Shown here: positions 20,653 through 22,019 of the stretch, piece by piece | Layout of the letters: each line of letters starts with the position of its first letter | How positions within the stretch are numbered: the stretch's first letter is position 1 | Virus record (IMG/VR): IMGVR_UViG_3300022602_000031 | Location: 116,050-180,049 of that record | Length of the DNA stretch: 64,000 nt | Source: a virus | Strand: one strand, 5' to 3' | Notes under the pieces: generated by a model | What the model was told of the DNA's origin: nothing | Seen by the model: the letters and a program-made list of their open reading frames with translations, nothing else | The model's database searches: none | Position numbers and translations under genes: made by a program

Positions 20653-21800
20653 TGGCTGATCATCTTTGCGGATACTACAAGTGCGGACACAAAGAGTTTG
20701 GGTCTAAAGTTGATGCTTTACTATACTCAAAAATAGTAAACAAAAAAGTAGAATGGATATTTCACGACGATGTTTACCAGGCATTTGATTGGTCAACTGA
20801 GCCAGCTGGTAGTATGGATGATTATTATAATCTAAGAGCAAGAGAGTTACGCGAAAAATACGATTATATTATTATCAGTTATAGCGGCGGCGCCGACAGT
20901 GAAAATGTTTTACAAAGTTTTGTACGACAAGGACTACTAGTCGATGAAATCATTACCAACCACCTAACCAAAGCAAATCGTTCAATTGCAGTAGCAGATG
21001 TAAACAATACACACAGTTGGAATTTCGCCTCAGAACACGAATTACAAACAGTTCCACGATTAAAATGGATAAGCGATAATTGTCCCAAAACAAAAATTAC
21101 TCTGCTTGATGTTAGTGATGTAATTATTGATAGTGTAACTGATGATCAAAGTTGGTTCTTGGGTAAAAACGATCATCTTGCTCCCGGACAACTGTTTAGA
21201 AATAATTATTGGTACTTTAACAAGCTACGTCAGGAGTTTGATAAAAATAGATCTGTTGGTATTATAACTGGTGGCGACAAACCTAGAACGTTTATCGAAA
21301 ACGACATACTGTACTTGTATTTTCTTGATAGTGTTGCTAACATTACTACCATCAATGATTTCAACAGCAACAATGATAATATTAAAACAGAACTGTTTTT
21401 TCACGGAGCAACTACTGCTCCAATGATAGCCAAACAGGTACACGTTATTAAACGTTGGCTCGAAGCAAATCCAGACAAACAAGAATATTGGCGCAATATT
21501 ACACCAGAAAAAGTTAGATTGTATCACGAAAGATTTTTGCGCCCGTTACTGTATCCTACTACTTGGGACAACAGTTGGTATCAGGTAGATAAATCTGTCA
21601 GTTGGTGGCATACCGAGTTTGATACATGGTTCAGAACAAATCCTGAATTTGCTCGGCAAAAAGAATTATGGGATAAAGGTATTATGTGGTTAGCAGATAA
21701 GCTAGGCAACCTAGTTGAAACCAAAAACGGAGTCCCGGACACTTTTGTTAAATTTAGAAAAGTTTACCAAATTGGCACAATGAAACCTAACTTAGGTTGA
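20652..21800 (+). CDS. PP-loop (adenine nucleotide alpha-hydrolase) protein
   Basis: YSGGADS PP-loop motif; paralog of 35158(-); start moved to 20652. Confidence 0.65.
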   Translation: MADHLCGYYKCGHKEFGSKVDALLYSKIVNKKVEWIFHDDVYQAFDWSTEPAGSMDDYYNLRARELREKYDYIIISYSGGADSENVLQSFVRQGLLVDEIITNHLTKANRSIAVADVNNTHSWNFASEHELQTVPRLKWISDNCPKTKITLLDVSDVIIDSVTDDQSWFLGKNDHLAPGQLFRNNYWYFNKLRQEFDKNRSVGIITGGDKPRTFIENDILYLYFLDSVANITTINDFNSNNDNIKTELFFHGATTAPMIAKQVHVIKRWLEANPDKQEYWRNITPEKVRLYHERFLRPLLYPTTWDNSWYQVDKSVSWWHTEFDTWFRTNPEFARQKELWDKGIMWLADKLGNLVETKNGVPDTFVKFRKVYQIGTMKPNLG

Positions 21801-21825
21801 CACAAAAGATAAATAAATGTATAAT
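21797..21825 (+). promoter_or_regulatory. Consensus sigma70 promoter of the leader/attenuator
   Basis: TTGACA-17 bp-TATAAT. Confidence 0.9.
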
Positions 21826-21835
21826 TGATACTATT

Positions 21836-21961
21836 ATGACACTAAGAACTTGTAAACATTCCTTATCACTACAGCCAAATCTAGGCGTGTCAGCCTATTG
21901 GCCTGCGATCGAGATGTTTACAATTAATAGCGATCGTGGATACAGAGAGGGTCTCAATTAG
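21836..21961 (+). CDS. Putative 41-aa attenuator leader peptide
   Basis: MTLRTCKHSLSLQPNLGVSAYWPAIEMFTINSDRGYREGLN*, located between the promoter and a terminator. Confidence 0.55.
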   Translation: MTLRTCKHSLSLQPNLGVSAYWPAIEMFTINSDRGYREGLN

Positions 21962-21991
21962 AGTATAGTAATTAACCATATTTTAATCGAG

Positions 21992-22019
21992 ACCCTGGAC
22001 TAAACACCCAGGGTTTTTT
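21992..22019 (+). terminator. Intrinsic terminator (attenuator)
   Basis: ACCCTGG-actaaacac-CCAGGGT followed by TTTTT. Confidence 0.85.

Follow-up and report, generated by a model that had tools for sequence, protein, structure and literature searches.

Locus and sampled relatives

The window analysed here, a stretch of 64,000 nucleotides (nt) at positions 116,050 to 180,049 of IMG/VR virus record IMGVR_UViG_3300022602_000031, is part of a 180-kb viral contig that represents about half of one jumbo phage genome. The contig encodes a large terminase, GroEL and a helicase, and its closest cultured relatives are Pseudomonas jumbo phages of the PA5oct/Paride group (terminase identity 53%). On the plus strand of the window, a promoter, a short leader open reading frame (ORF), two hairpins (HP1 and HP2) and an intrinsic terminator precede a small ORF and a tRNA region. 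Judged from the sequence and its natural variants, this element is probably a ribosome-mediated (leader-peptide) transcription attenuator. The parts of the element are:

21797-21825, plus strand: sigma70 promoter, with TTGACA at 21797-21802, a 17-nt spacer and TATAAT at 21820-21825 (12/12 match)
21836-21961, plus strand: leader ORF of 41 codons, from ATG at 21836 to TAG at 21959-21961, the stop lying within the 5' arm of HP2
21850-21923, plus strand: HP1, the hairpin inside the ORF, with an outer stem of 21850-21859/21914-21923 and an apical TAGGC (21882-21886)/GCCTA (21893-21897)
21948-21996, plus strand: HP2, the putative antiterminator hairpin, 20 bp in 49 nt, whose 5' arm includes the leader's stop and the four codons before it
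21992-22019, plus strand: intrinsic terminator, with ACCCTGG at 21992-21998, a 9-nt loop, CCAGGGT at 22008-22014 and six T at 22014-22019

The small downstream ORF (58 aa) has 29 homologues and the 41-aa leader ORF has four called homologues. The homologue contigs were scanned with a 22-mer that covers the T run and the ribosome-binding site (RBS), which yielded about 30 loci and 15 distinct variants of the element, all from freshwater or lake metagenome assemblies. Two loci (L032 and L039) were excluded from the variant set, as they have only the terminator tail and the RBS in common with the others. The comparisons below refer to these 15 variants unless another number is given. Their leader peptides fall into three classes with essentially unrelated sequences: class A of 39-42 aa, which includes the window, and classes B and C, each of 32 aa. 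The gene 5' of the element varies among loci and encodes TctC-like, DctP-like or unknown-family proteins; the gene 3' of it is the same small ORF at every one of the approximately 30 loci. One lineage has a separate terminator immediately ahead of the promoter of the element. A covariance model search recovered one copy of the element per genome and no diverged copies.

Predicted competition between hairpins

An earlier, sequence-only reading of this stretch had pointed to an 8-nt complementarity between the end of the leader and the left arm of the terminator, and proposed that the two resulting hairpins are mutually exclusive. The exact complements are present (AGGGTCTC at 21948-21955 and GAGACCCT at 21989-21996) and form the base of HP2. 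Chance could produce an 8-nt complement by itself; the argument is built on the helix of 20 bp and on its conservation. Across the variants, 92.4% of the HP2 cells are paired and four pairs have changed on both sides. Examples of such covariation are GGGUCUC/GAGACCC, GGGCUUU/AAAGCCC, and AAUUA/UAAUU versus GGUUA/UAACC. The covariation score of HP2 was reached by none of 500 shuffles, and when the partners are slid by 1-3 columns they pair in 33-54% of cells. Conservation of the complementarity, named beforehand as the point at which the proposal could fail, was found to hold, with HP2 kept in all 15 variants. HP2 is also kept in a natural variant from another lake run, in which G in place of A yields a U-G pair, U in place of a bulged C yields an additional A-U pair and a C-G pair has gone.

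The intrinsic terminator described at 21992-22019 is likewise present and is kept in all variants. Its hairpin has a 7-bp GC-rich stem (-11.6 kcal/mol) that is 100% paired across the variants, with hardly any variation. A simple terminator scan misses it solely because of a loop limit of 8 nt. Positions 21992-21996 are common to the 3' arm of HP2 and the 5' arm of the terminator, and this sharing of ACCC(U) occurs in every variant. The RNA from 21832 to 22025 folds with -55.9 kcal/mol (z = -4.85, equalled by 0/200 shuffles), and its minimum-energy fold holds HP2 instead of the terminator. In stem-forced folds, the HP2 and terminator states differ by -5.8 to +5.6 kcal/mol over all variants, and class A mostly favours the HP2 fold.

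Copies of the terminator cassette (window 21989-22026; stem, ACTAAACAC loop and T run) were also seen in contigs of other lake runs, with different flanks and downstream genes. These phages apparently reuse the cassette as a terminator unit.

A further 10-bp pair that had been noticed, 21850-21859 with 21914-21923, is real and constitutes the outer stem of HP1. In the window and in L043 the stem sequence is GUAAACAU/AUGUUUAC; the remaining class A variants have UUAAUCAU/AUGAUUAA, a compensatory difference. Classes B and C have a hairpin of their own in the place of HP1. HP1 extends to about 21938 and HP2 begins at 21948, so they do not overlap, and both are present in the minimum-energy fold. 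HP1 is probably a pause or timing element. No Rfam family matched the element at E-values up to 10.

The leader reading frame

The variation within the leader shows the imprint of coding selection, from which we infer that the leader is translated. Frame 0 is free of stops in 15/15 variants over 32-42 codons; the other two frames contain 3-8 and 1-6 stops. Indels inside the ORF measure 3, 6, 3 and 24 nt and are thus all multiples of three, and those in the loop of HP2 measure 1-2 nt. The ratio of non-synonymous to synonymous polymorphism (pN/pS) is below 1 in most pairs (0.04-0.7), and one close pair of variants differs by seven synonymous changes versus one non-synonymous change. The stop codon lies 52-55 nt before the T run and always within the 5' arm of HP2. 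Peptides of classes B and C have a hydrophobic N-terminal half.

Inspection bears out the earlier statement that the leader has no run of a single amino acid. All 20 amino acids occur among the 41 residues in the window (P about 0.006-0.011 against random windows of the phage's proteins), and all 20 fall inside the 34-codon zone where a stall is predicted to cause read-through (P about 0.002). Class A variants have 18-20 different amino acids, and those of class C have 18-19 in 32 residues (P 0.01-0.06), values that represent few independent observations because the variants are related. Codons that correspond to the neighbouring tRNAs (Tyr, Gly, Trp, Asp, Glu, Asn and Cys) are no more frequent in the leader, with 13 of 41 (32%), than in the phage's proteins (about 32%). 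A local excess of Asn, Asp, Tyr and His codons before HP2 was considered and dropped, as it was a post hoc observation that disappears over the whole leader.

Promoter and predicted leaderless start

The promoter and one other site are the only perfect 12/12 sigma70 promoters on both strands of the whole 180-kb contig, where about 0.09 would be expected by chance (an estimate from composition). The pattern TTGACA-17-TA[TC]AAT is present in 15/15 variants. The leader ATG lies 10 nt past the -10 box in the window, and 7-10 nt past it in all variants. Transcription is predicted to start at about 21832-21833, giving a 5' untranslated region of about 3 nt, and the short distance between the -10 box and the ATG leaves no room for a Shine-Dalgarno (SD) sequence. 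The leader mRNA would thus be leaderless or nearly so. The sequence-only reading had the perfect promoter and the 41-codon ORF in place and overlooked this layout.

The other perfect promoter of the contig (window 17337-17365) has the same arrangement. The ATG of a gene for a 303-aa N6/N4 DNA methylase (window 17337-18283) lies 6 nt past its -10 box. The phage therefore seems to have a habit of using consensus promoters for leaderless expression.

Proposed mechanism

We masked a 30-nt ribosome footprint in silico and refolded the remaining RNA. When there is no ribosome, or when the Trp or Asp codons occupy the A site, the outer pairs of HP2 form (8/8) and those of the terminator do not (0/7). 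With the A site at the stop codon, or at the Tyr codon six codons earlier, all seven terminator pairs form (7/7). The masking experiment agrees with the proposal that a ribosome that reaches the stop covers the antiterminator and so permits the terminator. The direction of the switch and the reach of read-through, as set out below, are those that the model would predict.

Host sigma70 polymerase would start about 0-3 nt before the AUG, and a 70S ribosome would load on the leaderless mRNA and translate the 41 codons. A ribosome that keeps in step with the polymerase would be at the last codons or at the UAG while the next 50-60 nt are being copied. At the end of the leader it would cover the 5' arm of HP2, leaving ACCCUGG free to pair with CCAGGGU, and the transcript would end at the U run (22014-22019). 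Should there be no ribosome, or one that is late or has stalled at least five codons before the GGG, HP2 would form first and hold ACCC(U), so that no terminator could form and the polymerase would continue into the small ORF. Without a further strong terminator, read-through would go on into the non-coding stretch and tRNA-Tyr.

The leader of the window has no codon run, and every one of the 20 amino acids is sampled before the point of no return, so slow decoding of any kind would be the likeliest signal. Possible causes are shortage or cleavage of tRNA, or inhibited or saturated ribosomes. The idea of a general translation-stress sensor, put forward before on the basis of the one sequence, gains some support from the complete set of amino acids in the window and none from class B, whose leaders are not unusually diverse. 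The leader as a general sensor of decoding speed finds moderate support in the comparison of variants.

Alternative explanations

Several observations weigh against attenuation by a translating ribosome, or limit what can be drawn from the variants. The bases of the overlap itself (GGG:CCC and ACCC) are invariant, so that covariation backs the helix adjoining the overlap and not the overlap. Classes B and C favour the terminator fold by 1-5 kcal/mol, and the default state may therefore differ among variants. An anti-antiterminator that overlaps HP2 is absent, because HP1 does not reach HP2; an untranslated leader should consequently read through, unlike that of trp. The earlier comparison with trp/his attenuators thus holds for the choice between hairpins of the 2:3 and 3:4 type and fails for this third structure. 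The occurrence of the terminator cassette with other flanks means that part of its conservation is not specific to the switch. Purifying selection within the classes could reflect a function of the peptide itself. Leaders of class B are unremarkable in amino-acid diversity (P 0.1-0.3). Codon usage in the leader is ordinary (mean relative synonymous codon usage of 1.1-1.3), and a search for a cluster of rare codons found none.

Some of these points would be expected if the leader were an ordinary micro-protein gene with a leaky terminator, HP2 being a 3'-end or stability hairpin and transcription running on constitutively into the small ORF. The pN/pS values below 1 inside the peptide classes, the hydrophobic N-terminal halves in classes B and C, and the reuse of the terminator cassette elsewhere are all consistent with this. 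However, three unrelated peptide classes precede the same HP2, terminator and small ORF, and because ORF length, stop position and HP1 are kept among them, it is the act of translation rather than its product that appears to matter. Also difficult to reconcile with a micro-protein gene are the overlap of HP2 and terminator and their near-equal energies, which are kept in all variants, and the lack of any leader homologue outside the module. We regard this explanation as rather unlikely. A different possibility is that a protein, small molecule or tRNA binds HP1 or HP2 and sets the choice of hairpin, with the ORF being secondary. The architecture of HP1 is conserved without overlapping HP2, HP2 has conserved G-U pairs and near-invariant arm sequences, and the terminator loop (ACUAAACAC) is almost invariant, as might be expected of a factor-dependent switch. 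We give such a switch little credence, given that the HP1 sequences differ wholly among classes A, B and C, which is a poor fit to one ligand, that the Rfam search was negative, and that the open frame, stop position and synonymous bias would be left unexplained.

It is also quite improbable that the terminated RNA, about 185 nt long, is a product in its own right and acts in trans as a small RNA. The strong promoter, stable structure (z = -4.85) and terminator would suit this role, and small RNAs derived from attenuators have precedent; rnTrpL of Sinorhizobium reportedly has both functions, and the phage RNA could do both as well. No complementarity to a target was found, though no search aimed at it was made. 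A role in trans does not exclude attenuation, and it leaves the strict linkage to the small ORF unexplained. Attenuation by a ribosome translating the leader accounts for the open frame, for the place of its stop and for the conserved competition between HP2 and the terminator, and we consider it the probable function of the element.

The putatively regulated gene and its predicted frameshift

Directly behind the element lies a small gene that contains a putative frameshift site:

22039-22279, plus strand: gene for a small coiled-coil protein, with SD sequence AAGGAG at 22027-22032; the zero frame gives 58 aa and ends at 22215, the shifted product has 79 aa and ends at 22279
22186-22200, plus strand: +1 frameshift site, with AGGGGG at 22186-22191, TCA, AAA at 22195-22197 and TAC at 22198-22200, prfB-like and conserved

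The SD sequence is strong and is placed 8 nt after the T run. All 29 homologues of the small ORF are found directly behind the element. Comparison of loci thus shows an invariable linkage of the switch to the small ORF, and not to the tRNAs. The protein has no match in Pfam, NCBIfam or PDB.

The site AGG-GGG-UCR-AAA-UAC is invariant as a motif in 16 variants. Upstream of the AAA codon at 22195-22197, frame 0 is the conserved frame. Downstream of it, pairwise differences in the +1 frame number 676 synonymous and 278 non-synonymous, with no stops, versus 8 synonymous and 927 non-synonymous differences with 37 stops in frame 0. In one variant (L027), a stop in the +1 frame ends at the first A of AAA, which locates the shift at AAA_U. 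Products across the variants would be 55-59 aa long in the zero frame and 76-81 aa after the shift. The codon in the A site, UAC, is a sense codon and would be slowly decoded. Taken together, the substitution patterns indicate that the small ORF requires a prfB-type +1 programmed frameshift to give its full product.

Downstream non-coding stretch and tRNAs

Two further features follow the small gene:

22280-22511, plus strand: conserved non-coding stretch, a possible target of read-through, with blocks conserved in relatives and variable inserts
22512-22597, plus strand: tRNA-Tyr (GUA), the first downstream tRNA

Core blocks of the non-coding stretch, GGAAACGAGGTCC and AAACGGGCGG, were identified in the window (22280-22511), in L018 (2095-2460) and in L031 (3430-3717, minus strand). 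The inserts in relatives are flanked by AGTAAAGC/GCTTTACT stems. The stretch has no match in Rfam, either for the window or for six relatives. tRNA-Tyr is found behind the module in nearly all relatives. In several of them the copy is missed by ARAGORN (L015 2180-2578; L017 2540-2660) and the acceptor stems look imperfect; one missed copy is covered by a called 54-aa ORF.

Also present are candidate promoters. At the head of the non-coding stretch, relatives have a promoter-like TTGAC[AG]-18 nt-TA[TC]ACT. The corresponding -35 box is degenerate in the window, so read-through may matter more there. Relatives carry either TTGAC[AG]-18-TA[TC]ACT or TTGACC-17-TATAAT between the small ORF and the RNA genes. 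At 24588-24625 the window has TTGACA-17-TATACT, whose transcripts would begin 1-2 nt upstream of the 5' end of mature tRNA-Asp, and TTGACC-17-TATAAT stands in the place of this promoter in L027 and L040. Given these promoters ahead of RNA genes, the tRNAs would not depend on the attenuator alone. The earlier proposal of read-through into small ORF, non-coding RNA and tRNAs is accordingly strengthened for the small ORF, by its strict linkage, and weakened for the tRNAs, which have promoters of their own in relatives and, for tRNA-Asp, in the window.

The first tRNA gene downstream of this frameshift, with its Tyr UAC codon in the A site, encodes tRNA-Tyr. We offer, as a tentative and somewhat doubtful possibility, a two-stage sensor of aminoacyl-tRNA supply. 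A slow codon in the leader would cause read-through, and shortage of Tyr-tRNA would then cause the frameshift at UAC, so that full product, of 77-79 aa, would be made only when both occur. In this way the phage would gauge harm to the tRNA pool of its host, such as that caused by anticodon nucleases, and compensate for it, and read-through would also reach an RNA without an Rfam family and the phage's own tRNA-Tyr.

Distribution

Loci retrieved via the upstream 390-aa protein (L001-L013) lack the element; synteny between the element and the 390-aa gene is thus not conserved. One of these, a distant relative (L001), has a permuted tmRNA gene (6677-7045; tag ANDEKFALAA) about 1.5 kb downstream of its homologue of the 390-aa gene. 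The element is absent from GenBank phages, in which no DNA match was found except for tRNA-Tyr, and no homologue of the small ORF. Among the public runs listed for the locus there was no RNA run. An exact 25-mer from the terminator region had no match in viral_contigs. The sole match in genome_contigs, a metagenome-assembled genome (MAG) of Oceanicoccus, was considered as a clue to the host and rejected as a chance match within a coding region.

Comparison with known systems

Leader-peptide attenuation is a textbook mechanism for bacterial control of amino-acid operons. Like the trpL, hisL, pheL, leuL, thrL and ilv leaders, the phage element has a short leader, mutually exclusive antiterminator and terminator hairpins and a hairpin within the leader. 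As in the trpL/hisL type, the stop is placed such that a terminating ribosome would mask the 5' strand of the antiterminator. Unlike that type, it lacks a run of regulatory codons and contains all 20 amino acids, and it is apparently leaderless and without an SD sequence. It also differs in its phage setting, in a predicted target that is a small frameshifted ORF instead of a biosynthetic operon, and in matching no Rfam leader.

Leaderless leader-peptide attenuators are known from the ilvBNC operon of Corynebacterium glutamicum (PMC11857589) and from mycobacterial Cys small ORFs (sORFs) (doi 10.1101/834739). The ilvBNC leader has the leaderless start that is predicted for the phage element, and shares with it a first hairpin that is proposed to be a pause element, three hairpins and competition between H2 and H3. 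It differs in that H1 overlaps H2 and blocks initiation, and in having defined Leu and Val control codons (PMC11857589). The mycobacterial sORFs, unlike the phage element, act on translation via RBS sequestration and carry Cys runs (doi 10.1101/834739). The phage element is distinguished from both by its lack of identifiable control codons and by being viral.

The phage leader also resembles leaders of another kind, in which an upstream ORF has no amino-acid run and ribosome stalling, general or induced by a drug, leads to the antiterminator and relieves premature termination. Such ribosome-stalling attenuators of antibiotic-resistance genes (ABC-F and erm-type leaders) were reportedly found with Term-seq by Dar et al. 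in 2016. The downstream gene in the phage is, however, not a resistance gene, its leader is predicted to be leaderless and is longer, and it is situated in a phage tRNA region.

The frameshift site shares with prfB (PMC12421855) the AGGGGG in the same register, the 3-nt spacer, a slip codon followed by T, and an A-site codon six nt after the SD-like element. Unlike in prfB, the slip occurs on AAA_U instead of CUU_U, the A-site codon is the sense codon UAC (Tyr) instead of UGA, termination in the zero frame follows after four to eight further codons, and the gene product has no relationship to RF2.

We found no paper in the literature on leader-peptide attenuation in a phage or ahead of a phage tRNA region. 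A viral, leaderless attenuator that has no regulatory codon run and is coupled to a +1-frameshift gene would, on the evidence of these sequences, be new. A prfB-like +1 frameshift on a sense codon is rare in bacteria and their viruses, and the site could serve as a tunable part. The element is small and self-contained and has a consensus sigma70 promoter, and can thus be tested in a laboratory strain without culturing the phage. This makes it possible to ask how large phages time the supply of their own translation parts while hosts attack tRNAs. A leader without control codons and with all 20 amino acids would report general decoding speed instead of the supply of one amino acid.

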